Below, in pieces: positions 19,793 through 57,604 of a DNA stretch of 57,604 bases. Each line of letters begins with the position of its first letter. Positions within the stretch are counted from its first letter, which is position 1. Both the position numbers and the translations under genes were made by a program. The stretch spans positions 1 through 57,604 of the forward strand of contig JACQXV010000195.1 of the NCBI GenBank assembly GCA_016208715.1, written 5' to 3'. The DNA is from Candidatus Woesearchaeota archaeon (GTDB taxonomy: Archaea > Nanobdellota > Nanobdellia > Woesearchaeales > UBA11576). The notes under the pieces are model-generated. The model saw only the letters and a program-made list of their open reading frames with translations. It did no database searches and had not been told where the DNA came from.

Positions 19793-19802
19793 TTTCAGTG
19801 TA

Positions 19803-21035: not shown

Positions 21036-21077
21036 GACAGATTACATCGAATAGTTTTATCTCTTGTTCTAATTATT

Positions 21078-23342: not shown

Positions 23343-23484
23343 GAAGCTCTTCAGAGAATTCAGAGAATCACGCGGGTGAAAAAGAAGCTCCTGTGGTGTT
23401 TGTTGAGAAATCTCCCTGCACCTCTTTTGTTACAAACAAGAGTCGACTCCGCCGCCTATTCAAATCCATAAATGTGAAATAAAA

Positions 23485-23624: not shown

Positions 23625-24812
23625 GAGCCAGTCGGTGATATCTCTCTTATAGTCTGCTTCTTTTTGGTAGATGTTGGTCTCATGCCCGTTGAAGTTGATC
23701 TTGCCTGTCTTGAGTTCTTTGCTATCGAGGAACTTGAGTCGCAGTTCTACGCTGTAGCGTCCTGCTTTGAGGTCATTGATGGTGTTTTGGGTGATGTCGA
23801 AGTAAAACACGGGTTGCGTGATTTGTTTCATCTCTGATGTAATCTTAGTTAGATCCACAAGGTAGTTTCCTTTTTCGGTTCGGAAGATGATGAGGTTTTC
23901 TCCCTCGCGCAGAATATCCGGCGTGAATTCAATCGTGACCTTACCGCCGCAATCAGGCAGTGTTGAGTAGACGGAGTGGCCATTGATTGTGATATCAAGT
24001 TTTCCTACTTTTGTGACTTCACAGTCAGGAGCGAAGCGTAGAACACTGCGTTGCACGTTGTTCTTCTCGGTCGCGCTCACGATGAAGCTGTTCTGGCTTC
24101 GTTGTTGAGTAACGTCAGTAACATCTGCGGAAATTTGGACTGTTTGCAGACCGAATTCGTGCACGCGCCAGAAAAGCCACCCGACTCTGCTTGATTCAAA
24201 TTCGAGCGTATTCTTACCTTGCAGCAGACTTGACTTAGCAAGACGGAGCGGTTCGACGTTTTCTTGCGTGATCGGTCCATTGAATATCTCATTTCCGTTA
24301 AGTCGGATTACCAAACGTCCTTTGCTTCGGGTCGTTGCGCGAAATGTAAGAAGGACGTTGTCCGTATTTTCAAAGTCGCTGATTGCGAACGTCACGTTTG
24401 CGCGCTCTTGCCGCATGAATGTCGTTCGAACATAGAGGTTACTTCGCGTCTCAAGGATTTTGGCATTTTCCTTTGCAAAGAGATAGACTGCTCCGATGTT
24501 ATGCTCTATGTCTTTAGTGTCAAGGGGTGAGAGGGTTCCGGGTGTTGCTAAGAGCAGTGTATCGTTTGCACCGCCAGTCCCTGGTCCGGTCGTGGTGGTT
24601 TGATTTCCTTCCAGGATCTGGTCACGAAATTCAGGTGGAATGAAAAGGAGATAGAAGATAATGAGCAGTGCAAGGAGCGCTACAAGCGTTGCTGCAGCGT
24701 TTGCATCGGCTTGAGCTTTGGTGCATCGGCCCCGCTGAGAAAAATACGTTGAATAATGCGTTGAATAAGAGGCATTGTATGAATACATTGGAGACCGAAC
24801 CGACCGAACCAT
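23613..24812 (-). CDS. Membrane-anchored beta-rich protein (399 aa), function unknown; first gene of surface cluster 1
   Basis: Single N-terminal hydrophobic segment ATLVALLALLIIFYLLFIPP, then a T/G-rich linker and a beta-rich domain. The final codons VFV and the TAG stop lie inside the MITE terminal repeat. Confidence 0.6.
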   Translation of the reverse strand: MVRSVRSPMYSYNASYSTHYSTYFSQRGRCTKAQADANAAATLVALLALLIIFYLLFIPPEFRDQILEGNQTTTTGPGTGGANDTLLLATPGTLSPLDTKDIEHNIGAVYLFAKENAKILETRSNLYVRTTFMRQERANVTFAISDFENTDNVLLTFRATTRSKGRLVIRLNGNEIFNGPITQENVEPLRLAKSSLLQGKNTLEFESSRVGWLFWRVHEFGLQTVQISADVTDVTQQRSQNSFIVSATEKNNVQRSVLRFAPDCEVTKVGKLDITINGHSVYSTLPDCGGKVTIEFTPDILREGENLIIFRTEKGNYLVDLTKITSEMKQITQPVFYFDITQNTINDLKAGRYSVELRLKFLDSKELKTGKINFNGHETNIYQKEADYKRDITDWLVFV

Positions 24813-26162: not shown

Positions 26163-27269
26163 TCAGCGTCTTGTCAGTTTCAGAAGGTGTTCTACTTCCC
26201 GTGCAATCATCAATTCTTCATTTGTCGGGATCACGAGCGCCTTGATGCGCGAAGAATATTTTGTAATGATCGCCTTATTCTTTCTGTTTGCGCTAGAATC
26301 GAGAGCGACGCCGATGCAGGAAAGTTGTTTAAGGACGTTCTCTCGTAAAAGTGCTGCATGCTCTCCTATCCCTGCAGTAAAAACGATCGCATCGCACCCT
26401 CCAAGTTCTACGTAATATGCTCCAAGATATTTCACAAGGCGATGACACATTACGTCAAATGCGAGCCGCGCGTGCTGCGAACCCTTTCCTTTCCACGACT
26501 TCATCGATGCAATGATGTCGCGCAAGTCTTTTTTTCCAGACAGTCCGAGAAGCCCCGATTCCTTATTGAGTAGATTGACGACGCGCGCTGCGGGAATCTT
26601 TTCCTTTTCTGCAAGGTACGCGACGAGTGCAGGATCAAGATCACCGCTTCGGCTTCCCATCACGAGGCCTTCAAGAGGTGTGAATCCCATACTTGTATCG
26701 ACTGACTTGCCGCGGTCGATTGCGCATATTGACTGGCCATTGCCAAGGTGGCAGGTGATGAGTTTAAGCTGTGCTAGTGGTTTGCCGAGGATCTTTGCCG
26801 CTTCGTGAGCGACGTACTTGTGGCTGATGCCATGGAAACCGTACCTTCGGATGTGATACTTGTTTGCAAATTTGCGCGGTATCGCATAGGTGTATGCTTT
26901 TGGCGGCAGAGTTTGATGAAATGCTGTGTCAAACACTGCGACTTGCGGTACGTTCATCAATGAAAGACATACCTTAATGCCTTCTACTTCGGAAGGATCG
27001 TGGAGCGGTGCGAGTTCGCAAAGCATCTCCAGTTGCTTCACAACGGCCGGCGTGATTATTTCTGGTTGCGTATGCGCTCCACCGTGCACCACGCGGTGTC
27101 CGACCGCGTCAATTGTTCTATTGCATGACTTGACATCCGCGATGACTTGTTTCATGCCCTTGCAGTAATTAGTGACTCGTTCAAGATACCCGCGTGTGAC
27201 GAGTTTTTGAGATGCAAAAAGAGAATACTTGATTGACGACGAACCGATGTTGAGAACTAGAATGTTCAC
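26163..27269 (-). CDS. ackA: Acetate kinase
   Basis: Motifs VLVLNIGSSSIKY, HRVVHGG, GFHGISH and FTAGIGE. I place the start at an in-frame GTG (27269), 4 nt after the pta stop, rather than at the track ATG (27329), which overlaps pta by 56 nt. Confidence 0.9.
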   Translation of the reverse strand: MNILVLNIGSSSIKYSLFASQKLVTRGYLERVTNYCKGMKQVIADVKSCNRTIDAVGHRVVHGGAHTQPEIITPAVVKQLEMLCELAPLHDPSEVEGIKVCLSLMNVPQVAVFDTAFHQTLPPKAYTYAIPRKFANKYHIRRYGFHGISHKYVAHEAAKILGKPLAQLKLITCHLGNGQSICAIDRGKSVDTSMGFTPLEGLVMGSRSGDLDPALVAYLAEKEKIPAARVVNLLNKESGLLGLSGKKDLRDIIASMKSWKGKGSQHARLAFDVMCHRLVKYLGAYYVELGGCDAIVFTAGIGEHAALLRENVLKQLSCIGVALDSSANRKNKAIITKYSSRIKALVIPTNEELMIAREVEHLLKLTRR

Positions 27270-27273
27270 GCCG

Positions 27274-28311
27274 CTACCTCTTCTTCGCCGGGTGCTTGTG
27301 GCTTCGGCTAACACGCTGCGCCTGCACAACGGTCACAGCAGTCACATCAACAATATCTTCAACGCTGCATCCTCGCGAGAGGTCATTCACAGGCAACGCC
27401 AGTCCCTGCAGAATGGGTCCGATTGCTTTTGCCCCGGCCAGCCGTTCGACGAGTTTGTACGCAATGTTGCCCACGCTTACATCTGGAAAGATGAGAACGT
27501 TTGCTTTGCCGCACACCGGGCTTGCTTTGCATTTGATCGCAGCAACTGACGGCAGGAGCGCCGCGTCCACCTGAAGCTCCCCGTCGATGAGAATGTCCGG
27601 CCGTTTCTTGCGCACAATCTTTACAGCATCGCGCAGTTTCTTGAGGACGGGATGCTCGGCTGAGCCGTGCGTTGAAAACGACAATAGGGCAACGCGCGGC
27701 ACGAGTCCGAACTCTTCTGCAGTTGTTGCAGAATCAATCGCTATCTCAGCAAGCGTGCGTGCATCAGGATCGATGTTGACGGAACAGTCTGCAAAAACGA
27801 GATTCTCATCCTTGAGCTCCATGAGGAAAAGTCCGCTTACACGGTGGAATCGTTCCTTAGTTTTGATGATCTGCAGCGCCGGCCGAACAGTTTGCGCGGT
27901 GGTGTAGAACGCTCCGCCGATCAGCCCGTCTGCTTCGCCAACTTTAACCATCATAGTACCGTAGTAGATGGGATTTTCCATCAATTTGTGCGCCTTGTCG
28001 ATTGTCATTCCTTTTTTCTTACGAAGCTGATAGAGTAAGTGTGCGAAATGTTTACGTTCTGGCATATTCCTGTAGTCGATGATCGTGATCTTTGGAAGAA
28101 GTAGTTGGTGGTTTACACCAGTCTTTTTCATTGCAGCAATAGCTTCCTGTCGCGAGCAGAGGAGGAGGGGTTTTGCAATCCCTTGCTTAACGATAAGCTC
28201 AACAGCGCGGATCGTTCGGCTCTCGCATGCTTCGGGGTAGACAATCGTTTTTGGATTTTTCTTTGCAAGGTTCTTGATTTTTTGGACAATGTCTATTGCC
28301 ATGCACTCCAC
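27274..28311 (-). CDS. pta: Phosphate acetyltransferase (PTA_PTB family, short form)
   Basis: 345 aa. GLIGGAFYTTAQTVRPALQIIK and DVSVGNIAYKLVERLAGAKAIGPILQG are typical of Pta. It lies immediately upstream of ackA on the same strand. Confidence 0.9.
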   Translation of the reverse strand: MECMAIDIVQKIKNLAKKNPKTIVYPEACESRTIRAVELIVKQGIAKPLLLCSRQEAIAAMKKTGVNHQLLLPKITIIDYRNMPERKHFAHLLYQLRKKKGMTIDKAHKLMENPIYYGTMMVKVGEADGLIGGAFYTTAQTVRPALQIIKTKERFHRVSGLFLMELKDENLVFADCSVNIDPDARTLAEIAIDSATTAEEFGLVPRVALLSFSTHGSAEHPVLKKLRDAVKIVRKKRPDILIDGELQVDAALLPSVAAIKCKASPVCGKANVLIFPDVSVGNIAYKLVERLAGAKAIGPILQGLALPVNDLSRGCSVEDIVDVTAVTVVQAQRVSRSHKHPAKKR

Positions 28312-28363: not shown

Positions 28364-28612
28364 GTATTGTTTAGCGGCCTCGCCACCGACCCGCGAGCTA
28401 GCAGTTCTTGCATAGTCTCGCACGATTCTCGGCTCGTTACGTGAGTTAAAACTTTACACATTAATCCTTTACACATTAATTCAAAATTCATCTAAAAACG
28501 GATAGTCGAAGCGACTTCGACGAAGTCGAATGTAACCTGAAGGTGCCAGCCGACTTTTCAGCTGACGGCGAGCGTCGTGGCGACGCTGCTAACTGAGTGG
28601 CTAAACAAATAT
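28364..28612. mobile_element. MITE-like element, B-type termini, long form (about 249 bp)
   Basis: Shares the common core plus a roughly 130-bp inner module with copies at 38503 and 46172. The left TIR tip is reiterated (GTATTGTT three times at 28340, 28352 and 28364). There is an internal 14-bp tandem duplication CTTTACACATTAAT. No clear TSD. Confidence 0.7.
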
Positions 28613-28717
28613 CCTCGTTTTACTGATTACTGCATATTCAATATATATTTTGGTAACAAGTATTTAAATAATAGTAGTGCGTTGTCATGATATATTTCAA
28701 CAAAAAGAGTTGACGCG

Positions 28718-30943: not shown

Positions 30944-31765
30944 ATGATCGTTAAAGAAGAATTTCTTTCCAAACTACGACGCTATTTCTCACTGAATCTT
31001 TATGAAGTGAAGATTTGGACTGCGTTGTTGTCTCGTGGGGTTTCTACTGCTGGTGAATTGTCTGATATTGCGAATGTTCCTCGGTCTCGTTCATACGACG
31101 TTCTTGAAAGCCTGGAAAAGAAGGGTTTTGCGGTTACGAAGCTTGGTAAGCCTATCAAGTACATCGCAGTTCCTCCTGAAGAAGTTCTTGAGCGTGTGAA
31201 GAAGAACATGAAAGAGGAAGCAGATGGCAAAGTCCAACGTCTTGAAGAACTCAAAGGAACTGAAGTGCTTGATGAACTTAAATCCTTGCACACGCAAGGC
31301 ATTGAACTGGTCGAGCCAGCGGATCTTTCCGGCAGTTTGAGAGGCAGACATAATCTTTACAATCATTTAGAACTTACGATCCGTAACGCGGAAGAATCTG
31401 TGACGATTATGACGACAACGCAAGGCTTGATGCGCAAGATCGAAGGCCTCAAACCGGTGTTTGAAAAGCTCAAGAAGCGCGGCGTGAAGATTCGCATTGC
31501 TGCTCCAATCACGAAGGAGTGCTCACGTGTTGTTAAAGACCTTGGCGATACTGCAGAGGTCCGTCACGCAAACAGCAAAGCGCGATTCTGTATCGTTGAC
31601 AGCTCGGAACTCATCTTCATGGTGATGGATGATCAAGAAGTGCACCCCACGTATGACGTTGGCATTTGGGTCAACACGCCCTTTTTTGCAAATGCCCTCG
31701 AGGGACTATTCGATCTTTCCTGGAAGAACTTAAAGCCTGCAAAAGAAGTTCTGCCCAAGCAATAA
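30944..31765 (+). CDS. TrmB-family transcriptional regulator (paralog 1)
   Basis: N-terminal winged HTH: YEVKIWTALLSRGVSTAGELSDIANVPRSRSYDVLESLEKKGF. The C-terminal domain is collinear with paralog 2 (40998-41813). Confidence 0.8.
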   Translation: MIVKEEFLSKLRRYFSLNLYEVKIWTALLSRGVSTAGELSDIANVPRSRSYDVLESLEKKGFAVTKLGKPIKYIAVPPEEVLERVKKNMKEEADGKVQRLEELKGTEVLDELKSLHTQGIELVEPADLSGSLRGRHNLYNHLELTIRNAEESVTIMTTTQGLMRKIEGLKPVFEKLKKRGVKIRIAAPITKECSRVVKDLGDTAEVRHANSKARFCIVDSSELIFMVMDDQEVHPTYDVGIWVNTPFFANALEGLFDLSWKNLKPAKEVLPKQ

Positions 31766-37805: not shown

Positions 37806-37820
37806 TTTAAAGGTTTAATA
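37806..37820 (+). promoter_or_regulatory. TATA-like box (TTTAAAGGTTTAATA), probably the original tfe promoter, now separated from tfe by a MITE
   Basis: It matches the recurrent AAGGTTTAWA motif and sits immediately left of the MITE target-site duplication. Without the insertion it would lie about 10-25 nt from the tfe start codons. Confidence 0.4.
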
Positions 37821-37827
37821 TTGAGGT

Positions 37828-37971
37828 GGCTCTGTCCCGAATCTGCCGCTGCCACCCTGCGAGCTGAAGCGATAAACAGGTTGCTTAAACATCCTCTCGG
37901 CAAAAGATTACCTGATATGTTCACAGCGAGCGGTGCAGCGGCCGAGCGTAAGCGAGATTCGGGACAGAGCC
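37828..37971. mobile_element. MITE-like element, A-type, 144 bp
   Basis: 17-bp perfect TIRs GGCTCTGTCCCGAATCT/AGATTCGGGACAGAGCC. An exact 9-bp TSD TATTGAGGT sits at 37819-37827 and 37972-37980. Arms are near-identical to the 7795 copy, with a different central loop. Confidence 0.88.
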
Positions 37972-37981
37972 TATTGAGGTA

Positions 37982-40997: not shown

Positions 40998-41813
40998 TTA
41001 CTTGGCTATCTGTTCAACAGGTTTCATGTCCTTCCATTCGTTGTCAAACAGTTGTGCAAGCGCAGTCGCGAAGAAAGGTGTGTTGACCCAAATGCCAACG
41101 TCATACGTTGGATGAACGTCTGCGTCATCTAGAAGCATAAATGTCATATGTTTCTTGTCAACAAGGCAGAAGCGTGCTTTGAGGGTGTTTGTGTGCCGCA
41201 CTTCTGCGAGGCCGCGCAGGTCCTTGAGTGCTTTTTCTGTTTCTTTGGTGAGCGGTGCTGCTATGCGCACTTTCACTTTTCTGTCTTTTGCTTTCTGCAG
41301 TGCATTCTTGAAGACATCTGCTTCGCGCGCGAGTCCCTGGCTTGTTGTCATTATGTCGACGCGGCTTTCTGCATTCTTGATCAGGGACTCGATATGATTG
41401 TAAACATTATTTCTTCCTTTGACTGCGCCGGAGAGATCGGTGGGATCAACCATTTCGACACCTTGGTTATGGAGAAGAGTGAGCTCGCCGAGGATCTCGC
41501 TTCCATGAAGGCTTTCGAGAATTTTGGTTTGTTTGTCTGCCTCTTCATTGACTTTCTTCTTGACACGTTCCAAGACTTCTTCGGGTGAAACTGCAACGTA
41601 CTTGATGGGCTTGCCCAGTTTCATGATAATGAATCCTTTCTTTTCCAGGCTTTCAAGAACGTCGTATGAACGAGACCGAGGAACATTCGCAATATCAGAC
41701 AATTCACCAGCAGTAGAAACCCCACGAGACAACAACGCAGTCCAAAGTTTGCTTTCGTAGGTGTTAAGGCCGAAATCCTTGAGTTTGTTTAAAAAATCCT
41801 TTTGAACAATCAT
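40998..41813 (-). CDS. TrmB-family transcriptional regulator (paralog 2)
   Basis: Start at MIVQKDFLNKL. Its HTH region is 100% identical at nucleotide level over 109 nt to paralog 1. The remainder is collinear but diverged. Confidence 0.8.
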   Translation of the reverse strand: MIVQKDFLNKLKDFGLNTYESKLWTALLSRGVSTAGELSDIANVPRSRSYDVLESLEKKGFIIMKLGKPIKYVAVSPEEVLERVKKKVNEEADKQTKILESLHGSEILGELTLLHNQGVEMVDPTDLSGAVKGRNNVYNHIESLIKNAESRVDIMTTSQGLAREADVFKNALQKAKDRKVKVRIAAPLTKETEKALKDLRGLAEVRHTNTLKARFCLVDKKHMTFMLLDDADVHPTYDVGIWVNTPFFATALAQLFDNEWKDMKPVEQIAK

Positions 41814-42245
41814 GTTTTCCCACAGTTTTTTGTTTGAAAGCAACGATGACGCGCGGAAACCCTTTTTTGACAAAAAGTTAAGCAAATTAAGCAAATAAGT
41901 AATAAAATGGCGTTAACGGCGTTAATTTAACTAAAAACATCTAAAATATCTTCTATATCTTCTTTTCTATATCTTCTTCCTAAACCTCTCTTAAACTGGT
42001 TTTGAACATGGCTTATTTGAAAAAGAGACGTTTTGATGTTTTCGGATATGATATTTTTGTGCGCGCCGCCAATTTTGCAAGCGTCGAAGGTATTGCGTGC
42101 GACATTTTTACTATCAGCGAGATATAACAATTATATAAACGTTTCGTTGTTGTATCTATCAATTAGTAATAAATATGTATCATGTGTATAAATATTGAGC
42201 GTTTGCTGTTTAACTGCGTATTGCTGCATATTGGCGCCTTTCTGC

Positions 42246-43834: not shown

Positions 43835-43975
43835 GTATTTGTTTAGGCAGCGTCGCCACCGACCTGCGAGCTAACGGCTTTCACATCGCCTCGCACGATT
43901 CTCGGTTCGGTAAGCGGCTTAACTTACACAGCGAGCGTCGTGGCGACGCTGCGATGTGAGTAGCTAAACAAATAC
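43835..43975. mobile_element. MITE-like element, B-type, short form (141 bp), near-twin of the 23485 copy
   Basis: Exact TIRs. An exact 8-bp TSD GAATAAAT sits at 43827-43834 and 43976-43983. The element lies 33 nt upstream of the MCM ATG. Confidence 0.88.
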
Positions 43976-46161: not shown

Positions 46162-46171
46162 ACATTCTCAA

Positions 46172-46408
46172 GGCTCTGTTTGGAATTGTGCTGCTGCCAC
46201 CCTGCGAGCTGAAAGGCCCACCTTGTCTCGTGCGATTCTCGGCTCGTTGTGTGAGCTAAACCTTTGCACATTAATTCGAAATTTATTTAAAATCGGGGTA
46301 GTCGAAGCGACTTCGATGAAGTCGGATGTCGTCCGAAGGTGCTAGCTGACTTTTCAGCTAACAGTGCGCGATGCAGCGGCCGCTGAAAGAGAAATTCCGC
46401 ACAGAGCC
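46172..46408. mobile_element. MITE-like element, diverged A-type termini carrying the long inner module
   Basis: GGCTCTGTTTGGAAT...GCTGCCACCCTGCGAGCTG on the left and ...GCAGCGGCCGCTGAAAGAGAAATTCCGCACAGAGCC on the right. The interior is homologous to the 28364 and 38503 copies. No TSD. Confidence 0.65.
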
Positions 46409-46417
46409 AGAAAGTAA

Positions 46418-46432
46418 GAAAGTTTTAAATAG
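46418..46432 (+). promoter_or_regulatory. TATA-like box (AAAGTTTTAAATAGC) about 27 nt upstream of the ATG at 46454; implies a leaderless mRNA
   Basis: Spacing and composition fit an archaeal BRE/TATA. No Shine-Dalgarno sequence precedes the ATG. Confidence 0.5.
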
Positions 46433-46453: not shown

Positions 46454-49400
46454 ATGGAAAAAGGAGGAATCTGCAGCGTCTGCCTGTTTCTCATATATCT
46501 TCTTATTTCACTCCCGCTGATCGCCTCCGTTGTTTCTGCAGACTCGTTTTCTGTCAACATTCATGGTGTTGATGAGGTTGCGGGTTTTCGAAAAAGTAAT
46601 GACGTTACAATCATTAATGCATCCGTGAATATTGCGGGAGATGTTCTCATAGATAGTTCTCAAGTAAAGTTAGTTACAGATCCTACTCGCGCATTTAGTT
46701 GTATTCCTCTGCCCGACAGCTCCGCCTCGTGCTTCATGACTATTCCGCAAATTCTTGCTGGCGGCGTCTATCCCTTTCAGTTTCAGGCGTTCCATGATGA
46801 TTTAACGCCTTCTTCTGCTGTTGCAAGCGCGCAAGTTGTTGTTGATGATTCCCCTGCAAAGCCTGTTGGTCTTGAGATTTCGTTGAAAGGAACAACAGTG
46901 AATGTTACAGTTGGCGCTCTTGATCAAGCGTGCGCCACGTGCCCCCCGACAGCGTGTTCCGGTATTGAAAAAATTGCTTATTTGTCAAATAACGCACAGC
47001 TCAAAGAACAGTCGCTCAAGACAAGTCAGTGTGTTGTTGGAGCGAGCTCGACAATGTTCAATATATCTGTTGGGAAAACGACTGAAAATCGCACGCTTTG
47101 TGTTGAGGTTTACGATCGTCTTGATCAAAAGAGCTCTGAATGTAAAATTGTGACGATCGATGGTTCGCCCCCGTCGCTTGTGAACATGTCGGTGTGGAAG
47201 GGCGAGTCGCTTCTCTCTTTCAGTAGCGGGAAGCCGGAGACTGTCAAGATAAGGGCAATTATCAAGGACGACAGCGGGATTGATGCCAACAGTATGGTTG
47301 CTGATTTTTCAATCATCAATCAGATTCCACAATTCAACCAGCAGTATAAAGCAATTGATAACTCGACACAATACAAAAATATCTATGAAGGTTGCAAGCC
47401 AACGGCAAAGAAGGGGCTCGTTGAGTGCGTGTGGAATAATCTCGTCATGGTCCTCCCTGCCGAAATAGAGCCGCAGGTGCGCCTTGCGTTCAATGACTTG
47501 AATGGGAATCTTCCTGCAGCTATCTACACGTTGCCGGTGAAATTTGACAACGCTGCGCCCAAAGTGCTCAAGATTCGTAGTCAGAGTGTTGATAATGCTG
47601 GAAAGAATTGGGTGGGCAGATACAATAATACGATCACAGCCGATATTGAGGAGACCGGTTCTGGTCTTACCAAGCGCGGGATTGTTCTTGATGTTGCCGG
47701 CTTTGGCTCTCAGCTGACAAACATTGGTCAAGTAACAACCTTGTTTCCAAATAATTGTTCGGTTGGCTGGTCCTGTGTGTGGAATGGTGTGAATGTTACA
47801 TCATCAAAACCAAAGAATGGTGACGTGCTCACAGTCACTATTGTGTATCCTTCGCAGGATGACGCAGGAAATGCCGTTGAAGGAAATACGATCAGCGCGA
47901 TGTACTTGGATCTTGCAGCGCCTTCAATCGTCAATATTACCGGCTCGCAAGTTTGCCCTGTCGCTGGTGAGGATATCAAACTGATAGTAAACGTGAGCGA
48001 GAAAGAGTCGGGTGATGTCAAAGCGACTGTTTCTGCATCTGCGTTGAGTTTAGATCATTTCCCCAGAGAGTTTGAATGCGAAAAGACAAGCGAGGATGGC
48101 AAATGGCTTTGTGAGATCGCGATTGGAAATTTGCCGACGTATTATGCTAAGGATTTCGTAAACATCACTATCTCTGATCTTGCAGGAAACAAGAACTCGA
48201 CAGTATTTCCTCAGGAAGTGTGTGAGTCTGCGCCGGGCATTCCTCCAAACGTAGTTGGTGTATCAAAAGTTGATATCTTTCCGCGAAACGGCGTTGATAA
48301 AATGGTTGCTGAACGGATATCCTTCCCGCTCTTCTTTCAACCGTTCTTTACAACCGCAGGCACTGTTACAAAGATCCAGAAGGTTTCAGTTGTAGGCTGT
48401 GAAATCACCGGGGGCACTGTGAATGACCCGTATGTTGTGACTGAATTTTTGGTTGATAAGCCGCTCATAAGCACGAAGGTCCTCTTCATGCCGGAGGCAT
48501 TCAAGAATGCAAGTGGTGCGGGCGCCCTTGGCGATAAAGCGAAGATGAACTGCAGCACGCGTTTGATTGTTCGTTCAGGAACAAAAGTCTTCAAGGAGCC
48601 GGAAATCGAGAACGTGATGTTTGATGTGCCGTTGCATGGGACGCTGTTTGGTGAGATTACGAAAACAGTGAAGGCCAAGATCGATGCAAAGCAGAGGGAG
48701 ATTGATGCTACGCAAGAAAGCATTGACAGCTTGCAAAAGTGGGTTAATATTCTTGGAACGATGTGCACTGTGGCAGAGATTTTGGCGAAGCTCGTCGCCG
48801 CGCTCGATCTCTTGTATGTGGTTATTTGGGGCGTTTCTTGGGCACTTGAATTGACTGGAATACTTGCTGGCGTCGGCCAAGGATTGTATCATGGAGCGTG
48901 CCAGTTCATGTCCTATGTCACAGGATACGGTGTGCCTACCTTCTGGCAGACAAATATGGCACTGAACCTGCCTAATTCTCTTGAGTCACCTGCCGCGTCG
49001 TCGCCGGGGTTTTGGCTTAAATTAATATGTGCATTTGTGTCGTGCCGTTTGCTTGAAACATCAAACGCGTTTGAACTTATTGCAAACACCGGTTCTGCTG
49101 ATGGGGGCGATTATGCTGAATTTGTTGCAAATGATAAAGCAACAACTCCTGGAAGACCGAACAGGATTGATGTATCAAAAGACAAACCCACAGGAAAGAC
49201 CGGGGATGTCACAGAATCGGTGATTGGATTTTCTGGTCCGGACCTGCTTTCTCCGTACAGAAGCTTGCCTGTCGCGACACGATTGTTCTGCTCGCCAGGC
49301 GAACTCTACGGGCTTAAGAAGGAACGACAAGTGAAATGTATGACGCGCAATTGTTACCGGGACTTTGTAACCGCTGGTTTTTCACCTGCGATTTGCGATC

Positions 49401-49789
49401 GGATGGAGGAGTTACGGACCTGCTTATACGTTGATGGTGCAGCATACAGGATTGTTGGTGACGCGGGGGTTGTCATGCGTTATATGACAGGCATTCTGGA
49501 ATATTGGCTTACGCAGTTCCTTGCTACGTTGGGATCGGTATTTCTTGCAAAATTTACTCGGTGTCCCTGGCCATTGGGTCTCGCACAATCGGGCGAAATA
49601 TCCGCAAAAATACAAATGCCCTACATGTGTACAAGCCCTACGGTGAGCTCCGGCTGGGTTTCTGCCTACTGCAGCGGTGCTATGGCAGGATTATTGTACC
49701 TTGATGTTGGAGATTGGCTTGGAGGAAGCGACTTTAAGTGGAATTACTACAATAAAAAATTAGAAGATCCTGATTATTGTGTACTGTAA
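46454..49789 (+). CDS. Giant secreted/membrane protein (1111 aa): signal peptide, repeated beta (Ig-like) modules, coiled-coil segment, TM helices, Cys-rich C-terminal domain
   Basis: N-terminus MEKGGICSVCLFLIYLLISLPLIASVVSA. About 700 aa of beta-rich repeats. KIDAKQREIDATQESIDSLQKW is followed by hydrophobic helices (ILGTMCTVAEILAKLVAALDLLYVVIWGVSWALELTGILAGV). The last roughly 300 aa contain many Cys. Confidence 0.7.
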   Translation: MEKGGICSVCLFLIYLLISLPLIASVVSADSFSVNIHGVDEVAGFRKSNDVTIINASVNIAGDVLIDSSQVKLVTDPTRAFSCIPLPDSSASCFMTIPQILAGGVYPFQFQAFHDDLTPSSAVASAQVVVDDSPAKPVGLEISLKGTTVNVTVGALDQACATCPPTACSGIEKIAYLSNNAQLKEQSLKTSQCVVGASSTMFNISVGKTTENRTLCVEVYDRLDQKSSECKIVTIDGSPPSLVNMSVWKGESLLSFSSGKPETVKIRAIIKDDSGIDANSMVADFSIINQIPQFNQQYKAIDNSTQYKNIYEGCKPTAKKGLVECVWNNLVMVLPAEIEPQVRLAFNDLNGNLPAAIYTLPVKFDNAAPKVLKIRSQSVDNAGKNWVGRYNNTITADIEETGSGLTKRGIVLDVAGFGSQLTNIGQVTTLFPNNCSVGWSCVWNGVNVTSSKPKNGDVLTVTIVYPSQDDAGNAVEGNTISAMYLDLAAPSIVNITGSQVCPVAGEDIKLIVNVSEKESGDVKATVSASALSLDHFPREFECEKTSEDGKWLCEIAIGNLPTYYAKDFVNITISDLAGNKNSTVFPQEVCESAPGIPPNVVGVSKVDIFPRNGVDKMVAERISFPLFFQPFFTTAGTVTKIQKVSVVGCEITGGTVNDPYVVTEFLVDKPLISTKVLFMPEAFKNASGAGALGDKAKMNCSTRLIVRSGTKVFKEPEIENVMFDVPLHGTLFGEITKTVKAKIDAKQREIDATQESIDSLQKWVNILGTMCTVAEILAKLVAALDLLYVVIWGVSWALELTGILAGVGQGLYHGACQFMSYVTGYGVPTFWQTNMALNLPNSLESPAASSPGFWLKLICAFVSCRLLETSNAFELIANTGSADGGDYAEFVANDKATTPGRPNRIDVSKDKPTGKTGDVTESVIGFSGPDLLSPYRSLPVATRLFCSPGELYGLKKERQVKCMTRNCYRDFVTAGFSPAICDRMEELRTCLYVDGAAYRIVGDAGVVMRYMTGILEYWLTQFLATLGSVFLAKFTRCPWPLGLAQSGEISAKIQMPYMCTSPTVSSGWVSAYCSGAMAGLLYLDVGDWLGGSDFKWNYYNKKLEDPDYCVL

Positions 49790-49794
49790 TTCAC

Positions 49795-50382
49795 ATGGAA
49801 ATGATCACACGCAACAAAATGATAAAATGGGTTTTACTCACGTGTATCCTATTTCTGCTGTTTTCGTTAGCTGTTGCTGCCTCAAAGCGCGAGTTTAGTG
49901 GTTGGAACGTGATTGGACAGGATTTACCGATCGGCAGCGATCACGGCGTTCCAACCACTCCTTGGTATAAGGTATCGCAGTGGGAGGTGAACGTGTGCTC
50001 CTATTATGGAGGAAATGACCCAACAGCATTCATTCAGCCCGGCGCCGCCGGAGAATATTATCATAACTTGATGCTCACATTGCAAGCACAAAAATCAAGC
50101 CCTTTGCCAAGCATCGCCGCCCCATTAAATACGAGAATCTATGAAGTTGCATATTTTATCCAGCCGACGGAGGATGACGAGAGCGTGAACTTTGAGGTTA
50201 TAGTGCGCAGCCGGGATGGTGTTGAAAAATCAATCGCGTCGGGTAGCTCGAACTACGTAAACGGGTATCGTGATTATTATGTTGAAGAATCTGAAACAAA
50301 TTACTCCCTCGCACGACTGCATTATTGGAATCAAAAAGGCGAGGGGACATTAGAAGTAAACTTCATGGAGCAACCGTCATGA
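49795..50382 (+). CDS. Small secreted protein (196 aa), function unknown
   Basis: ATG 6 nt after the upstream stop. Signal-like N-terminus KWVLLTCILFLLFSLAVAAS. The stop overlaps the next ATG (ATGA). Confidence 0.5.
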   Translation: MEMITRNKMIKWVLLTCILFLLFSLAVAASKREFSGWNVIGQDLPIGSDHGVPTTPWYKVSQWEVNVCSYYGGNDPTAFIQPGAAGEYYHNLMLTLQAQKSSPLPSIAAPLNTRIYEVAYFIQPTEDDESVNFEVIVRSRDGVEKSIASGSSNYVNGYRDYYVEESETNYSLARLHYWNQKGEGTLEVNFMEQPS

Positions 50383-51083
50383 AAACCATTCATCGCGAGC
50401 AACGGAACCCTGGCAAGCAAAAAAGTAGAAAAGAACGTCCAAAAAATAAAGTGGTGGCTCTTGCCCGCACATCATGGAAAATTTTCTGGCAAAAGCAAAG
50501 TTTCGTGCTTTTTCTATATGATTTGCTCGGAATTGTACTTGCTGTTGCATTGCTAGTCGGCGGGGCAGTATTGGTAAAGTGGACGTACCTTGGTTTTACA
50601 CCAACCGCGAAGTTGGCATTTGAAACAGCGCAAGCCATCAATGTGAATCCAAACCAGGTGACCGCCTTTAAGGATCAAATTTCAACGATCAAATTGGGTT
50701 TGTACCGCTGGATTGCTGGCATGATCTTTGCCACAGCCGCTATGCTTGTGATCCCGCTCGTGACGTTTTCTGTGTCTTCATTCTTTTCTGCATCAAAATT
50801 GGTAGAGAGCCTGAAGACGCGTCAATCAAGACTTAGCTGGAAACAACTTGGAGGAACTGGCGCATTGGGAATGTTCCTTGGCATTCTATTTTTGTGCATC
50901 TCGCTGCTCACTGCGCTAGTCCTGCGACCGCCAGTTAACGCAATTATTGTCCTGGTCCTTTTCTTTATTTTCGTAGTGTGGTGGCTTGTTGCATTGTACG
51001 AGTTCATAATCACAAAAAGAGTGCTGCATTCCTTGGTGTTTTTTTGGACAGGGGGCTGCAAGGACATTCTTTTTTTGTGTTGA
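50379..51083 (+). CDS. Multi-pass membrane protein (234 aa), function unknown
   Basis: Basic N-terminus, then 4 hydrophobic segments. Translationally coupled to the preceding gene through an ATGA overlap at 50379-50382. Confidence 0.55.
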   Translation: MKTIHREQRNPGKQKSRKERPKNKVVALARTSWKIFWQKQSFVLFLYDLLGIVLAVALLVGGAVLVKWTYLGFTPTAKLAFETAQAINVNPNQVTAFKDQISTIKLGLYRWIAGMIFATAAMLVIPLVTFSVSSFFSASKLVESLKTRQSRLSWKQLGGTGALGMFLGILFLCISLLTALVLRPPVNAIIVLVLFFIFVVWWLVALYEFIITKRVLHSLVFFWTGGCKDILFLC

Positions 51084-51273
51084 ATTGTATTGTTTGTGCT
51101 GGTTTTATTCATGTCAGGGAATGTCATACTCAGTTTAGCAAAACTTGTATCTCTAAAAGCATATGCATTTTTACTGGTGATTTGGATTGTTGCGAATTTC
51201 ATGTTGCTAAGAAGTGTAATTTTCTGCTACTTGCATTTTCATACGGTGAAGATCACACGGTGAGGAGGAGGGT

Positions 51274-53619
51274 ATGAAAAGAAAAAGAAGCACCCTCCGG
51301 ATGATGTCTACCGAGCGCGGGCCGTCGTTTATAACATCACGAAAGTCTCAAATTACAATATTCATTATCATCGGCCTATTGCTCATCGCTGCGTTGGGTG
51401 TCTTCTTGGCGCTGAGGGAGCAAGTAAAAGAAATCGAGCTCCCGGAAGAGCGCGTTGCGAGGGTCCCGCTGCAAGCGAAGCCAATCAACGCTTTTATTGA
51501 ATCGTGCGTACAGTCAGTTGCAACGGAGGCAATAAAGAAAATGGGCCAGCATGGTGGGTACATCAATCCGTTGGAAGAAAAAAATCCCGGCACGGGGATG
51601 AAGTTTGACCCGCAAAATCCCACCGACTCTGACGGGCTAACGCTGGTTGATGACCCTTCAACAGCAGTTGTATATTGGTGGTATTTGAAAACGCCAAACA
51701 ATTGCTTCAACTGCTTGCTGAGTGATGAGCGCGCCCCCGCGATCTCTTCGGTCGAAACTCAAGTAGATGAATATCTCAAGAACAATATCGATGCGTGCCT
51801 CAATAAGTTTGAGAGCTTCAAAGCTGCGGGATTTGCAGTCACAAAGAGGGGAGACCTAGTGGCAAAAACGACGGTGACGGAAAACGACGTCTTGGTTGTT
51901 GTAAGATTTCCGATCACTGTGGCGTTGGGCGCGGAAACGACAGATTTGACTGATTTCGTTGCACGCGTTCCAATCAGGCTAAAAGATATGCTTGAAGTAG
52001 CAACTGCCGTGGCCGACGCAGAGGCAACAGCGAATTTCTTGGAGTACGTTGGAAAGATGCTGATTAGCTACAACAGCGCTCTTGACACATCAAAACTTCC
52101 GCCGATCTACGCCCGTGAGGAAAGTTACGTGCCGAAAATTTGGATTAAACCCTCTGTTGAATCTCAGGTGAAGGACTTGCTGACGAGTTACATCCCGTTG
52201 GTGCAAATCAATGCAACAAAAGGAGCGGCTCCTATCCCTGCCGCCGATCCATTTACGCGAGGAATTTACAAAAGCTTTTTCTTTCCAACACTCAATGCGT
52301 CATTTGTGAATTATTCGGTCAGATTTTATTACTTGGATTGGCCGATCTATCTTCACATCACTCCAAACAGCGGAGGAATTTACGAAGCGAGCAGGGTAAC
52401 CGCAATCGAACGATCGCTGCTTGGTTTTCCTTCAATTGTCACGACAGCCCCAACGCGCGAGTATGAATTTTTTTATGACCTTTCTTTTCCGGTGCTCGTT
52501 GAAGTCAGAAACAACGAAGACCTCTATGGTGAAGGTTTCACGTGGCTTTTTGCACTAGAAGCAAACATTCGTGACAACCGGGGAGTGCGCCAGTGGTTCG
52601 AGGGAAATGGCACATGGGGGCCGTACAGGTATAACTTGTACAGTCTTGGTGCAAAATCAGAAGTACTTCAATCAGACTTTGGAAAGAAGCATCCGGCACT
52701 TGCGCCCAAGACTGCTAAGACACTTTTCTGTAATAGGAATCAATTGCTGAGCGGTAACGTGACTGTTGTGGTTCGTGATGCTGAAAACAAGACTTCCCTG
52801 GTTGGCGTTTCGGTCGTATACTCCTGCGGGGCCTATGCGGGTTGTCCGATGGGAATGACCGCTTTTGATGAAAAAACAAATGAATCGCGCTTTGTTTCCC
52901 CTTTTCCAATATGTATCGGCGGTGGAATCTTAACGCTTAAGAAACAAGGATACGAAACTAAAACGAAGATTGACATTTCAACAAAGCCTACGGTGCCTCT
53001 TGATATTGAAGAAGAGATGCAGCACGTTTATGAAAAAGAAGTTAAAGTCAAGAAACTGCTGCTGAATAGAAATATTCTTTATCGCAGACCATTGGGGGAT
53101 CATGGCAACACGTACATTCGATTCATGCGGTTGTCTGGAGCAACTGCAGACATCAATCTCAATTCAGAAAGCGTAATCCTAACAGTTAGAAGGAGTGATG
53201 GGGATAAATTTGGCCCGCCATCTGCGCAAACGATTGTGTTTGATAAGACTAAGGATGATCCTATCCTGCACAAAATAACGCTCGTCCCGGGAACGTATGA
53301 AGTGCGTACTACATACATCAACATGCAGGAATCAAAAATTCCTCCAGAATACCGCTGTGAAGACGGGGATGAAGATTGTTTTTGGATCCCTGAGCCGCCG
53401 GGGGTTAAGATGGACGCTTCATTGGGTGGAGGTTTAGAGTTGGTGAATAGTACAGGATACTGGATTGTGAGCTTGTCTGATCTCAAGAAGGGAAATGTGG
53501 TGTTGTTCACGATTCTACAACTTCCGCCGCCATTAGTTGTGGAAGACTTATCAGAGTTTGGAAAGCTTGAAGATTATTCCAAACAATTTCGCTCACTGCT
53601 TCAACCAGCATTCTCCTAG
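51274..53619 (+). CDS. Large N-terminally anchored extracytoplasmic protein (781 aa), function unknown
   Basis: GGAGGAGGG Shine-Dalgarno-like sequence upstream. The N-terminus ...SRKSQITIFIIIGLLLIAALGVFLAL is a signal anchor, possibly class III (pilin-like). The remainder is a large beta/alpha-rich region. Confidence 0.6.
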   Translation: MKRKRSTLRMMSTERGPSFITSRKSQITIFIIIGLLLIAALGVFLALREQVKEIELPEERVARVPLQAKPINAFIESCVQSVATEAIKKMGQHGGYINPLEEKNPGTGMKFDPQNPTDSDGLTLVDDPSTAVVYWWYLKTPNNCFNCLLSDERAPAISSVETQVDEYLKNNIDACLNKFESFKAAGFAVTKRGDLVAKTTVTENDVLVVVRFPITVALGAETTDLTDFVARVPIRLKDMLEVATAVADAEATANFLEYVGKMLISYNSALDTSKLPPIYAREESYVPKIWIKPSVESQVKDLLTSYIPLVQINATKGAAPIPAADPFTRGIYKSFFFPTLNASFVNYSVRFYYLDWPIYLHITPNSGGIYEASRVTAIERSLLGFPSIVTTAPTREYEFFYDLSFPVLVEVRNNEDLYGEGFTWLFALEANIRDNRGVRQWFEGNGTWGPYRYNLYSLGAKSEVLQSDFGKKHPALAPKTAKTLFCNRNQLLSGNVTVVVRDAENKTSLVGVSVVYSCGAYAGCPMGMTAFDEKTNESRFVSPFPICIGGGILTLKKQGYETKTKIDISTKPTVPLDIEEEMQHVYEKEVKVKKLLLNRNILYRRPLGDHGNTYIRFMRLSGATADINLNSESVILTVRRSDGDKFGPPSAQTIVFDKTKDDPILHKITLVPGTYEVRTTYINMQESKIPPEYRCEDGDEDCFWIPEPPGVKMDASLGGGLELVNSTGYWIVSLSDLKKGNVVLFTILQLPPPLVVEDLSEFGKLEDYSKQFRSLLQPAFS

Positions 53620-53658
53620 TAGAATAAGAATTGATGAGAAAGAATTAATGAAAAATCG

Positions 53659-53821
53659 GTATTGTTTAGCAGACCTTTAGCAGATCGTTTCGCGGAACGG
53701 CCACGACACTCGCTGCGCACGTAAAACTGGTTAACTAAGTTAGTTAACTAACTTGGAATCGTGCGAGACGAGGTGAATGCCGTCAGCTCACGGGTCGGTG
53801 ACGGCGCCGCCAAACAAATAC
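53659..53821. mobile_element. MITE-like element, B-type termini, inverted orientation, 163 bp
   Basis: TIRs GTATTGTTTAGC and CAAACAAATAC. An exact 8-bp TSD AAAAATCG sits at 53651-53658 and 53822-53829. The core arms are recognisable in reverse complement. The interior holds a TTAACTAAGTTAGTTAACTAACTT palindrome-like stretch. Confidence 0.82.
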
Positions 53822-53855
53822 AAAAATCGGGGAACCGAAAATGGGAGGAGATAAA

Positions 53856-55211
53856 TTACGTTGGCGTTTGAGCCGTGCTGTTTTCCGCGGTTGCGTTCTC
53901 TGCTGAAAATTTGCTTAAGCCTATCCCACCAAAAAGTGTGTAAATGTCCTGCTGTTGTCCTGACTGTGCTAAAGCTGGAACAGAGTTCGCTAGCCCCATC
54001 AGTTTACATGAGTTCTTTGCCTGTTCAATAGTGATCCTGCTACAATATTGTGCATCACGCGTTTGCAGCACGACTTGCAGATAGCATGAGTCTTTCCCGC
54101 GCGTCCCGTTGATGAACTCGCAAAAGTTCCCTTGAGTCTTGAATGTTGCAAGCATAGTGATGCATTGAGCGACATTGCTCTCGAAGTCGAATGTTTGGCA
54201 GAGCCCTGCTGCGCGGTTGGGTTCACGTACTGCCATTTGTTTAACAATCTCGAATGCCTCTTCCTTGGTTTTTCCTTCAAAGGGACCGGCGGGCTTTGGC
54301 GGCGTTGGCTGCGCTAGTGGCTGCGCAGGCTTAAGCGGCAGAAGTATTGGCTTAGGTGCTTCGGTTGGTGGAGTCTGTGCAGTAATGTTAGGTTTCTTCT
54401 CTTCAACGATGGGTACCTTCTTTCTTATTTCTTCGAGCTTTTGCTTTGCTATTTGTTCGGGTTCGATGGTGAAGATAAATCCTGATGTTGCTGTGTAATT
54501 TCCGTACAGCGCGTCCGTGCGTAATACGTATTCGCCGGGCGTGATGTCTTCTGGGAGCAGGAAGGTCACAACGCGTTGCGTTGTGGTGGCAATTGCGACA
54601 GTCTCTTGTTGCTCAAGAATGGTCTGGTCAGTTTCTTTTCGTAGGATTCTATAGCGTAGCGTGATATCATACGGCTGCAGCTTTCCAAAGTTAATGACGT
54701 CTGTCGTGAAGATGAAGTCCTCGCCAGGGATGGGGATGGTCGTCAGCTTGTTAACTTTCACGTCGAGGAGCGCTGTTGCTTCGGAAGGTTTTGCAGCAAG
54801 CACAAACATTTTGACATAAAAGAAGGACATGACTCCGCTCATTACGATGATTGCAATGAGCGCAAAGACGACGAGTTTGTGCTCCGCGTGGATTTCTTTT
54901 GCGGGTGCAGTGACGAGGTTAATTGCTGAATCAACTTCATAATATAGATATCCTTTGCTGACAAGAAATTCTTTGATTGTGTTGAGTGGGTATCCCGCGC
55001 GCTGTTGCTGCTGGATATAGTACGAGAGCTGCTGGATGCGTTGGTTTGCAGCAAGCTGCGGGTTTTGTTGGAGATTAATAACGTACTGGATCGAGCTCTC
55101 GACTTCTGCGCGATCATAGCCTGAATTGATGAGAAAGTTGTTGATTGCCTCAATTGTTTGTCCTGCTTGAAGTTGGGTGATAATATACGCAACGAGGCTT
55201 TGTTGTATCAT
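53856..55211 (-). CDS. Membrane protein (451 aa): two N-terminal helical repeats, TM, beta domain, Pro-rich linker, Cys-rich C-terminal domain
   Basis: The N-terminal motif is repeated (YIITQLQAGQTIEAINNFLINSGYDRAEVESSIQYV and YIQQQQRAGYPLNTIKEFLVSKGYLYYEVDSAINLV). TM segment VVFALIAIIVMSGVMSFFYV. PTPPKP-type linker. Confidence 0.55.
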   Translation of the reverse strand: MIQQSLVAYIITQLQAGQTIEAINNFLINSGYDRAEVESSIQYVINLQQNPQLAANQRIQQLSYYIQQQQRAGYPLNTIKEFLVSKGYLYYEVDSAINLVTAPAKEIHAEHKLVVFALIAIIVMSGVMSFFYVKMFVLAAKPSEATALLDVKVNKLTTIPIPGEDFIFTTDVINFGKLQPYDITLRYRILRKETDQTILEQQETVAIATTTQRVVTFLLPEDITPGEYVLRTDALYGNYTATSGFIFTIEPEQIAKQKLEEIRKKVPIVEEKKPNITAQTPPTEAPKPILLPLKPAQPLAQPTPPKPAGPFEGKTKEEAFEIVKQMAVREPNRAAGLCQTFDFESNVAQCITMLATFKTQGNFCEFINGTRGKDSCYLQVVLQTRDAQYCSRITIEQAKNSCKLMGLANSVPALAQSGQQQDIYTLFGGIGLSKFSAENATAENSTAQTPT

Positions 55212-55352
55212 ATAAGATACGAAATTGGTTTTTACTTATTTAAATATTGTGGGATGCGCACAAGCCGGGATGCACGATATCTATGAAGATGAAATTTAGA
55301 GGAAGGCGGATGGAAAGAAAGATTTATAATAACTCTCTTTTCTCAAATTAAG

Positions 55353-55645
55353 GTATTTGTTTAGCAGCGTCGCCACCGACCCGCGAGCGAATGCGGTGGT
55401 TTGATGTAGGTGCGACTTGCTTGTCGGTGCATTGAGCGTGTTGGGCTTTTTCATGATCATTCCTGCGACTCATGACATCCCCGAAGGGGATCCCTGTCAT
55501 TCGTCGACGCGAGGCAGGATTCCCAAAGGGATGCCGAGCGTCGCAGGAAGGATTATTCACAAAAAGCACGACTGCACCACGCAAATCACAACGGAAGATG
55601 GCGAGCGTCGTGGCGACGCTGCGATGTGAGTAGCTAAACAAATAC
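55353..55645. mobile_element. MITE-like element, B-type termini, 293 bp with a distinct interior
   Basis: About 40 nt at each end match the short-form copies at all but one position. An exact 8-bp TSD AAATTAAG sits at 55345-55352 and 55646-55653. The roughly 200-bp interior is unrelated to the other copies and contains several hairpins. Confidence 0.85.
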
Positions 55646-55673
55646 AAATTAAGCAAAAGTTGTGGTGGCGGCG

Positions 55674-57364: not shown

Positions 57365-57479
57365 TGTACATGGAAAGCTTCGTCGGTAAGCAAACTTCGC
57401 CACATATGTACGACCAGCACCGCTCAGACGCGCTACGCGCATCTTCGCTCAATTTCCGCCACAGCCAGCTCGTGAGCGG
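57365..57479. repeat. D-type repeat copy 2 (115 bp shared with 19678-19792); related structured sequence may continue to the window edge
   Basis: 4 mismatches in 115 nt versus copy 1. Downstream sequence holds further hairpins (ATAAGGGA-atgc-TTCCCTTAT) and a GACATCCCC motif also found in the 55353 element. Confidence 0.7.
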
Positions 57480-57604
57480 ATACAGTTCATCTAAGGCCGA
57501 CATCCCCATAAGGGAATGCTTCCCTTATCAACCCACATCGTAGTATTTTGCTTCGCTCAATACTACTCAATGTTCGTCGTCCGGTTGGAGCGTAGCGAAA
57601 ACCG

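Follow-up and report, generated by a model that had tools for sequence, protein, structure and literature searches.

Several described surface systems come close to the subject of this study, a block of five genes (g1–g5, positions 46454–55211) in a 57,604-nucleotide (nt) stretch of Candidatus Woesearchaeota DNA (contig JACQXV010000195.1), which as a whole is called the window below. The EppA-processed pilins of M. maripaludis (EpdA–E) are cut at sites such as RAQI, KGQV, KGQL and KGQI, and EppA needs a glutamine at position +1 (PMC4371748 Table 1). The modular pilin PilB of Streptococcus sanguinis carries a large module behind a pilin-type N-terminus, and in the Sulfolobus bindosome (Bas; sugar-binding proteins), large proteins that form no filament use a class III signal for surface placement (PMC3047682). 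The PilY1 tip complexes and DUF2341 adhesins of archaeal type IV pilus (T4P) loci set a pilin-like gene beside a non-pilin surface protein of >1,000 amino acids (aa) (Makarova et al. 2016). S-layer stalks such as SlaB and tetrabrachion combine a Sec signal, beta-sandwiches, a coiled coil, a hydrophobic membrane-proximal segment and N-X-S/T sequons, and bacterial Big_13/Big_3_3 adhesins are chains of immunoglobulin (Ig)-like domains with D-x-AGN-type motifs.

The block resembles each of these systems in part. Its fourth protein, g4, has the basic leader, small −1 residue, +1 Gln and ~21-residue helix of the Epd pilins, and the g4-family sites KGQI, KAQI and KSQI equal Epd sites; however, g4 proteins are 700–990 aa long and not <200 aa, have no +5 Glu, match no curated pilin hidden Markov model (HMM) and show no pilin head in the structure model, and no Epd-like assembly genes lie near the cassette. 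As in PilB, the module behind the pilin-type N-terminus of g4 is large. The bindosome would be the best analogy if g4 were never polymerised, but the cassette is without a solute-binding fold, an ABC transporter, or Bas-like ATPase or membrane genes. The neighbourhood of g4 and g1 recalls the PilY1 and DUF2341 systems, yet the cassette stands apart from ATPase/TadC operons and contains a protein with six transmembrane (TM) helices. The first protein, g1, has all the traits listed above for S-layer stalks, whereas it runs ~280 aa past its hydrophobic hairpin as a Cys-rich helical domain, has a short coiled coil and occurs as paralogues within a genome. Its N-terminal 700 aa form an Ig-like chain with D-x-AGN-type motifs like that of the Big_13/Big_3_3 adhesins, but its C-terminal 375 aa have no counterpart in them.

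Few uncultured archaea are as widespread as the Woesearchaeota, and how they attach to surfaces or partner cells is of interest. Castelle et al. (2021) reported 51 families common to Woesearchaeota and Pacearchaeota, most of them without an assigned function; a membrane-bound or extracellular location is predicted for many of the lineage-specific families of DPANN. By comparing gene order, domain architecture and predicted structures, we find that g1–g5 form a conserved, previously undescribed cassette built from unannotated families, which appears to be inherited as a unit in Woesearchaeota and ‘Nanoarchaeota’ (DPANN). On balance, we favour the reading that the block would build a membrane-anchored protein complex on the cell exterior, likely for attachment or cell contact. 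Some of the ‘Module 98’ families, which are of unknown function and common to Woesearchaeota and Pacearchaeota (PMC8204110), may, we suggest, be those of the cassette. What might have been a single-genome curiosity becomes a defined, widely conserved and often duplicated target with two large families that lack annotation. It offers a biochemical handle, the predicted EppA-type prepilin cleavage site on the ~780-aa g4 protein, and supplies candidates for surface proteomics, antibody labelling in cryo-electron tomography (cryo-ET) of enrichments and peptidase assays.

Gene order and family searches

The five genes proposed in an earlier sequence-only reading of the window are all present as open reading frames (ORFs):

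46454-49789, forward strand: g1, 1111 aa, Ig-repeat, Cys-rich protein (ORF list)
49795-50382, forward strand: g2, 195 aa, small exported protein (ORF list)
50379-51263, forward strand: g3, polytopic membrane protein, a frame of 294 codons that includes a 234-aa ORF at 50379-51083
51274-53619, forward strand: g4, 781 aa, large protein with a prepilin-type signal (ORF list)
53856-55211, reverse strand: g5, 451 aa, convergent bitopic membrane protein

The g1 stop codon (TAA, 49787–49789) is followed after 5 nt, rather than the 6 nt first counted, by the ATG of g2, and the expected ATGA overlap of the g2 stop and the g3 start is seen at 50379–50382. This start/stop linkage of g1, g2 and g3 is translational coupling visible in the window.

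Several lines of evidence support the block being a unit. First, we ran HMMs of g1–g5 on 67 Woesearchaeota/Nanoarchaeota loci, 57 of which were added by a g4-seeded metagenome scan; ten loci carried Pfam-labelled gene tables. The order g1-g2-g3-g4 occurs in 26 of the 67. Full-length g4 genes number 77: 34 come directly after g3 and 32 directly before g1, which places 66 next to one or the other, while eight have too little flanking sequence and three adjoin neither.

Second, the same order together with a convergent g5 is found in locus L001 (58% identity), in L002 (32%) and in L005, L008 and L009 (~24%). The neighbours of the cassette vary, being MCM in L001 and L002 and MetRS in L005 and L008, and in L009 it lies elsewhere; synteny persists at ~22–32% identity in differing genomic neighbourhoods. 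The absence of co-occurrence in other genomes had been named as one outcome that would count against the proposed system, and the result is strongly positive, with order kept across many loci.

Third, there is a second layout, g4'-g1-X-g3-g4-giant protein, in L003, L004 and L010. Because the ‘X’ protein in a further locus, L049, matches the g2 HMM at 4e-8, both layouts can be read as versions of one unit, (g4')-g1-g2-g3-g4; a direct hhalign comparison of g2 with the ‘X’ protein is weak (probability 5%). Many genomes hold a second, paralogous cassette (g4'-g1-g2like-g3-g4) beside the first, with a longer g2-like protein in the g2 slot. The lineage of the window has only the first cassette at this site, with no second copy within 57.6 kb.

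Back-to-back paralogous cassettes (g1-g2-g3-g4-<g5, then g4'-g1'-...) were seen in L017, L018, L019, L020, L033, L043 and L056. Giant proteins of 1800–4900 aa lie after or near the cassette in L003 (19540–22160), L004 (20177–22292), L010 (19912–22157) and L008 (18151–22643), and their faint Pfam matches include Big_13, Glucodextran_B, Laminin_G and MopE-type domains. A viral origin of the cassette was considered and rejected, as no relatives occur in IMG/VR viral contigs.

The families themselves are as unfamiliar to databases as the sequence-only reading had supposed. Pfam, NCBIfam, PHROGs and PDB sequence searches were empty for g1–g5, as were PDB profile searches for g1, g2, g4 and g5. When 28 relatives of g1 and 45 of g4 were searched against Pfam, and the g4 relatives also against NCBIfam, only sporadic matches to Big_13, Big_3_3, DUF7743 and CarboxypepD_reg appeared. 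Homology to a known S-layer, adhesin or pilus system would have spoken against a new system; the searches gave no confident match to a curated family or a solved structure beyond generic Ig, CnaB or transthyretin-like sandwiches. Profile–profile tests for domains shared among g1, g2, g4 and g5 were negative, and we found no description of this cassette in the literature.

Architecture of the five proteins

The largest protein, g1, divides as follows:

aa 1-29: Sec signal
aa 30-730: about seven Ig-like domains
aa 737-765: coiled coil
aa 766-832: semi-hydrophobic helical hairpin
aa 833-1111: Cys-rich all-alpha domain

Most of this layout had been recognised from the sequence, and it is borne out by the family alignment and by an AlphaFold2 (AF2) model built from 28 sequences (predicted local distance difference test score (pLDDT) 80). 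The N-terminal hydrophobic signal has a conserved A-x-A site. In the model, the signal helix is followed by about seven beta-sandwich domains over residues 31–728 and then by an all-alpha C-terminal part with helices of 64 and 57 residues and a disordered loop at 869–929. The heptad I/L positions of the coiled coil (743–760) are conserved in 28 relatives. Thirteen of the 33 Cys residues lie within residues 771–1109; across the 28 relatives, Cys is conserved as one pair in each Ig domain and is invariant at seven positions of the C-terminal domain. N-X-S/T sequons are enriched about twofold, with 15 against 7.9 ± 2.5 expected, all within aa 55–699; the g1 of L002 has 25 against 10.0 ± 2.7 expected.

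The hydrophobic helices that had been proposed for g1 fare less simply. Two hydrophobic segments do lie in 766–804, and the hairpin at 766–832 is above the TM threshold in the window protein, but conserved polar residues suggest that it may not be a plain TM element: its family-mean hydropathy is 1.0–1.5, with conserved C771, E775, N781, Q785, K788, W812 and C816. A membrane hairpin, a re-entrant element and a buried bundle are all conceivable forms of this segment.

The g1 family is large. A word-indexed search gave three relatives, and an exhaustive HMM search gave 1137 representatives at E<=1e-3, 418 of them at E<=1e-30, so that the family comprises at least 1137 clusters at 50% identity. 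Relatives are mostly 1000–1300 aa long and match over their full length, and those with names are all hypothetical proteins from Woesearchaeota or Nanoarchaeota metagenome-assembled genomes (MAGs). A further word-indexed protein search with a 28-sequence profile brought no additions, and a contig scan with a narrow g1 alignment found two loci. HMM matches to Big_13/Big_3_3 occur in 2 of the 28 relatives (E 1e-5 to 1e-6), and the window protein is below every Pfam threshold. Foldseek with the full g1 model returned generic Ig chains from PDB and BFVD (mastigoneme, alpha-2-macroglobulin, SbsB and phage Ig proteins). L007 (CAZBGH010000009.1), a contig with a GC content of 33% binned as ‘Methanosarcinales’, also carries a member of the g1 family, whose 1331 codons run off the contig end; the contig is probably mis-binned DPANN sequence, not a true occurrence outside the lineage.

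The second large protein, g4, has these parts:

N-terminus: basic leader
aa 23-34 (nt 51340-51375): class III site RKS/QITIFIIIG (the slash marks the predicted cut), leading into a hydrophobic helix
aa 66-445: alpha/beta domain
aa ~490-750: three CnaB/transthyretin-like beta-sandwiches

It had been described as N-anchored, and an N-terminal hydrophobic helix is indeed present, but the supposed anchor is a class III signal-peptide motif: a short basic leader ending in [KR]-[GAS] and then at least 20 hydrophobic residues, here RKS/QITIFIIIGLLLIAALGVFLAL. The indexed search found 56 relatives of g4, and every full-length relative likewise begins with a short basic leader, which leads through the motif [KR]-[GAS]-Q-[IVL]-[TS]-[IVL]-F-I-I-[IVL]-G into a hydrophobic helix. 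In its strict form, [KR][GAS]Q, the motif is present in 49 of 53 database relatives and the +1 Gln, which defines the EppA-type subclass, in all 53. Among the relatives in our loci, 66 of 68 have Gln followed by ~21 hydrophobic residues, and 62 have [KR][GAS] before the Gln. The motif equals the EppA processing sites of M. maripaludis and is confined to g4-family genes in ~0.25 Mb of related DNA. By its sequence, therefore, the g4 N-terminus reads as an EppA-type class III (type IV prepilin) processing site at which cleavage is predicted, and this signal would link the block with archaeal surface machinery of a known kind. The archaellins of a related contig (L009) use a different site, EMG/VGTLIIF, and the separate sites appear, by analogy, to mirror the division of labour between FlaK and EppA.

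An AF2 model of g4 (45 sequences, pLDDT 83) consists of the N-terminal helix, the alpha/beta region at aa 66–445 and the three sandwiches. Within the alpha/beta region, E257, E429 and N431 are invariant. Foldseek with the full g4 model gave no PDB fold match for this region, its matches being limited to generic Ig, CnaB or transthyretin-like chains.

The g3 gene differs from the complete 234-aa four-TM protein that had been proposed. A TGA at 51081–51083 interrupts a frame of 294 codons that ends at the TGA at 51261–51263, and the peptide encoded by the 59 codons past the first TGA is still conserved. Orthologues are 293–313 aa long with ~6 TM helices. At the position of the TGA, L001 has Gly and the closest genome, a groundwater Candidatus Woesearchaeota MAG (JACRKM010000067, L006; 77–85% nucleotide identity), has Ser. 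Recoding was rejected, since 11 of 27 confident genes close with TGA, which makes it an ordinary stop codon in this DNA; the one in g3 must then have arisen by a recent nonsense mutation or by an assembly or base error. Intact g3 proteins have almost no invariant residues, which would suit a scaffold rather than an enzyme.

The two remaining proteins are smaller. The Sec-exported g2 has invariant W57, Y58, W63, E64 and C68 (motif WY..(x)WE..C). The convergent g5 is bitopic, with the Pro-rich linker and Cys-rich domain that had been read from the sequence. It has two cytoplasmic three-helix repeats, a TM helix at ~aa 107–130 and a CARDB/MG2-like sandwich below threshold; its C-terminal domain has six invariant Cys spaced 12–14 residues apart, and its Pro-rich linker is swapped for CGGxC repeats in some relatives.

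What the cassette might build

A surface location of the block is well supported by predicted features: signal peptides, the Cys pair conserved in every Ig domain and the roughly twofold excess of sequons all point to extracytoplasmic placement. The sequence-only reading had proposed an undescribed envelope or host-interaction system. Co-occurrence, absent homology and extracytoplasmic signals argue for the envelope part of that proposal, and its host-interaction part is an inference.

In the exterior-complex reading that we favour, g1 would be exported through Sec, its disulfide-stapled and probably N-glycosylated Ig domains would point outward and its heptad coiled coil would oligomerise, with the Cys-rich helical base and the semi-hydrophobic hairpin seating the spike at or in the membrane. 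After prepilin-type (K-[GAS]/Q) cleavage, the N-terminal helix of g4 would anchor the protein in the membrane or lift it into a pilus-like assembly. With six TM helices, g3 could be the membrane platform, g2 a small exported subunit and g5 a link from outside to inside.

Five observations weigh against this reading. Pilin and archaellin N-terminal models of Pfam and NCBIfam match neither g4 nor its 45 relatives; the g4 model has a linker after the N-terminal helix and no classic pilin head; and T4P ATPase, TadC/PilC and prepilin peptidase genes are absent from the window and from the ten Pfam-annotated loci. Since curated pilin HMMs do not match and assembly genes are not found nearby, we describe g4 as having a pilin-type signal, with membership of the pilin family unproven. 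Archaellin genes in L009 imply that some peptidase exists in the lineage. Further, membrane insertion of the g1 hairpin is uncertain, given its low mean hydropathy and conserved E, N, Q and K. Finally, g3 is truncated in this genome, so that the cassette may be impaired here or the assembly wrong at that base.

The main rival, which we consider unlikely, is a structural one: g1, with g4 as partner, would be an S-layer or canopy protein, a beta-rich glycosylated arm on a coiled-coil stalk with its root in the membrane, like tetrabrachion or SlaA/SlaB, and the cassette would not be adhesive. The g1 layout of beta domains, coiled coil and hydrophobic segment fits such a protein, as do the enrichment of sequons in its exposed part, the very large, fast-evolving and lineage-wide family, the place of the cassette among core housekeeping genes and the presence of SbsB and SlaB among the Foldseek matches. 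Those matches, however, rest on generic beta-sandwiches with TM-scores of 0.1–0.15. Pfam and NCBIfam found no S-layer domain in g1, and there is no C-terminal TM or PGF-CTERM anchor, with 280 aa between the hydrophobic hairpin and the C-terminus. At ~30–60 residues the coiled coil is short, and many genomes hold at least two divergent tandem cassettes, which is unusual for a lattice protein. Woesearchaeota MAGs already hold other annotated S-layer genes, which are among their most highly expressed (PMC11606122).

Rather less likely, in our judgement, is a role of the cassette as tip or priming complex of a real type IV pilus, a special case of the exterior-complex reading in which g4 would be a ‘modular’ minor pilin built into the fibre and g1 a PilY1-like non-pilin adhesin carried along with it, the fibre and motor being encoded elsewhere. 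The class III motif of g4 is identical to that of EppA substrates, large pilins with grafted modules are known (PMC8179133) and archaeal T4P loci often carry large adhesin-like proteins (PMC4858521). By contrast, no small major-pilin gene with the motif is found in ~0.9 Mb of related loci, assembly genes are absent nearby, and the g4 model has no pilin head packed on the N-terminal helix. DUF2341, vWA and beta-propeller domains, the marks of PilY1 and DUF2341 adhesins, were not found in the window proteins or the g1 relatives, and the membrane-proximal base of g1 and the integral g3 would fit a membrane-seated complex better.

More speculative still is a new type of archaeal cell-to-cell contact machine unique to Woesearchaeota and Pacearchaeota. 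We would call it a long shot that g1 is an oligomeric Ig-stalk spike with a coiled coil and a hydrophobic hairpin that engage the partner membrane, while the six-TM g3 platform and a giant pilin-type g4, with a putative catalytic domain of no known fold, position and perhaps extend the spike. If true, the cassette would provide the means of host attachment or host access that has long been sought in these uncultured symbionts.

We give little credence to g1 as a contact-dependent membrane attacker, in which the coiled coil and a buried hairpin would insert into the host membrane as a pore-former or fusogen and so open the host cytoplasm to the symbiont. The long helical hairpin region (aa 737–830) is of moderate hydrophobicity with conserved polar residues, a pattern closer to the insertion hairpins of alpha-pore-forming toxins than to a TM anchor, and the DPANN lifestyle needs host access. 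No pore-former or fusogen appears, however, among the top Foldseek matches of the full g1 model (PDB, BFVD) or in the sequence searches, and the hairpin would be membrane-proximal, not distal, if the Sec-cleaved N-terminus faces outward. That the five genes are unrelated neighbours, exported or membrane-bound by chance, a case that leans on physical interaction being something we infer, is very improbable because their order is kept at 22–32% identity, across different flanks and also in duplicate.

Mobile elements, promoters and neighbouring genes

The three miniature inverted-repeat transposable elements (MITEs) reported around the block, at 46172, 53659 and 55353, are real. With their terminal inverted repeats (TIRs) and target-site duplications (TSDs), they are:

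46170-46408, no strand assigned: MITE-a, between MCM and g1; TIR GGCTCTGT..GAAT / ATTC..ACAGAGCC; second TIR family
53659-53821, no strand assigned: MITE-b; TIR GTATTGTTTAGC / ..CAAACAAATAC; 8-bp TSD AAAAATCG at 53651-53658 and 53822-53829
55353-55645, no strand assigned: MITE-c, 293 bp; TIR GTATTTGTTTAGC; 8-bp TSD AAATTAAG at 55345-55352 and 55646-55653

MITE-b and MITE-c flank g5, and L006 has uninterrupted empty sites for both. They belong to a family with the 13-nt TIR GTATTTGTTTAGC and many intergenic copies. Perfect 8-bp TSDs are present at four copies (2891–3175, 43835–43975, 53659–53821 and 55353–55645), and these TSDs, together with the TIRs, the numerous copies, the lack of coding capacity and the empty sites in L006, mark the elements as MITEs. 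Further copies of the 13-nt-TIR family lie at 23485–23624, 28364–28626 and 26130. The TSDs of this family are all AT-rich (AATAAAAT, GAATAAAT, AAAAATCG and AAATTAAG), and copies end 17–27 nt 5' of gene starts (MCM at 44002; an OB-fold gene at 55662), which suggests that insertion favours TATA-like promoter sequence and duplicates it. MITE-a is of the same family as the copies at 7774–7937 and 37807–37972. This second MITE-like family, with TIR GGCTCTGTCCCGAATC, also has a copy at 9257–9296, and its copies 7886–7937 and 37920–37971 are 100% identical.

Candidate expression signals of the cassette are:

46423-46431, forward strand: TATA-like box TTTTAAATA, with a purine-rich stretch 5' of it, 23 nt before the g1 ATG
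51264-51272, forward strand: Shine-Dalgarno-like element GGAGGAGGG, between the g3 frame stop and the g4 ATG
55236-55247, reverse strand: TATA-like box of g5, 25-36 nt 5' of the g5 ATG, kept in L006

In archaeal promoters, the spacing between the TATA box and the start codon indicates whether a transcript has a leader. By this spacing, leaderless transcription is plausible from both TATA-like boxes, with a g1–g4 transcript from the first.

Genes around the block belong to archaeal information processing (PolX, ligase, PCNA, PAN, RFC, eRF1, PheRS, TFE, TBP and MCM), and the window MCM carries the archaeal winged helix. The MCM of L002 (6471–9863, 1130 aa) holds an intein (Intein_splicing and LAGLIDADG), and the 674-aa window MCM has none. 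The ORF for the RFC small subunit (15473–16213, 246 aa, TTG start) aligns with the AAA profile from position 46 on and not before, and 14228–15473 has no ORF of at least 150 aa; the N-terminus with its Walker A motif may be encoded in another frame or be interrupted. No RNA genes turned up when the window was scanned with Rfam and for tRNAs.

Another membrane-protein cluster of the window (‘cluster 1’, 17553–24812, reverse strand) had been said to echo the block, but BLAST found no sequence similarity of cluster 1 to g1–g5, and we reject homology between the two. It encodes, in a row, three proteins (326, 356 and 410 aa) whose N-termini resemble a lipobox (..LAGC / ..GGCG) and then membrane proteins of 754 and 399 aa, and none of them matches Pfam.

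A bacterial-type pair of acetate kinase and phosphotransacetylase genes (Ack/Pta) lies at 26163–28311; such a pair has been reported for Woesearchaeota and Pacearchaeota (PMC8204110). Regulator genes of the TrmB family occur at 30944–31765 and 40998–41894; the two are inverted relative to each other and ~74% identical over 388 nt. A 122-nt direct repeat of 95% identity occurs at 19678–19799 and, 37.7 kb away, at 57365–57486, and a 39-nt unit is perfectly duplicated in tandem at 2992–3069. The GC content of the first 2 kb of the window is 0.34, unusually low against ~0.47 elsewhere.

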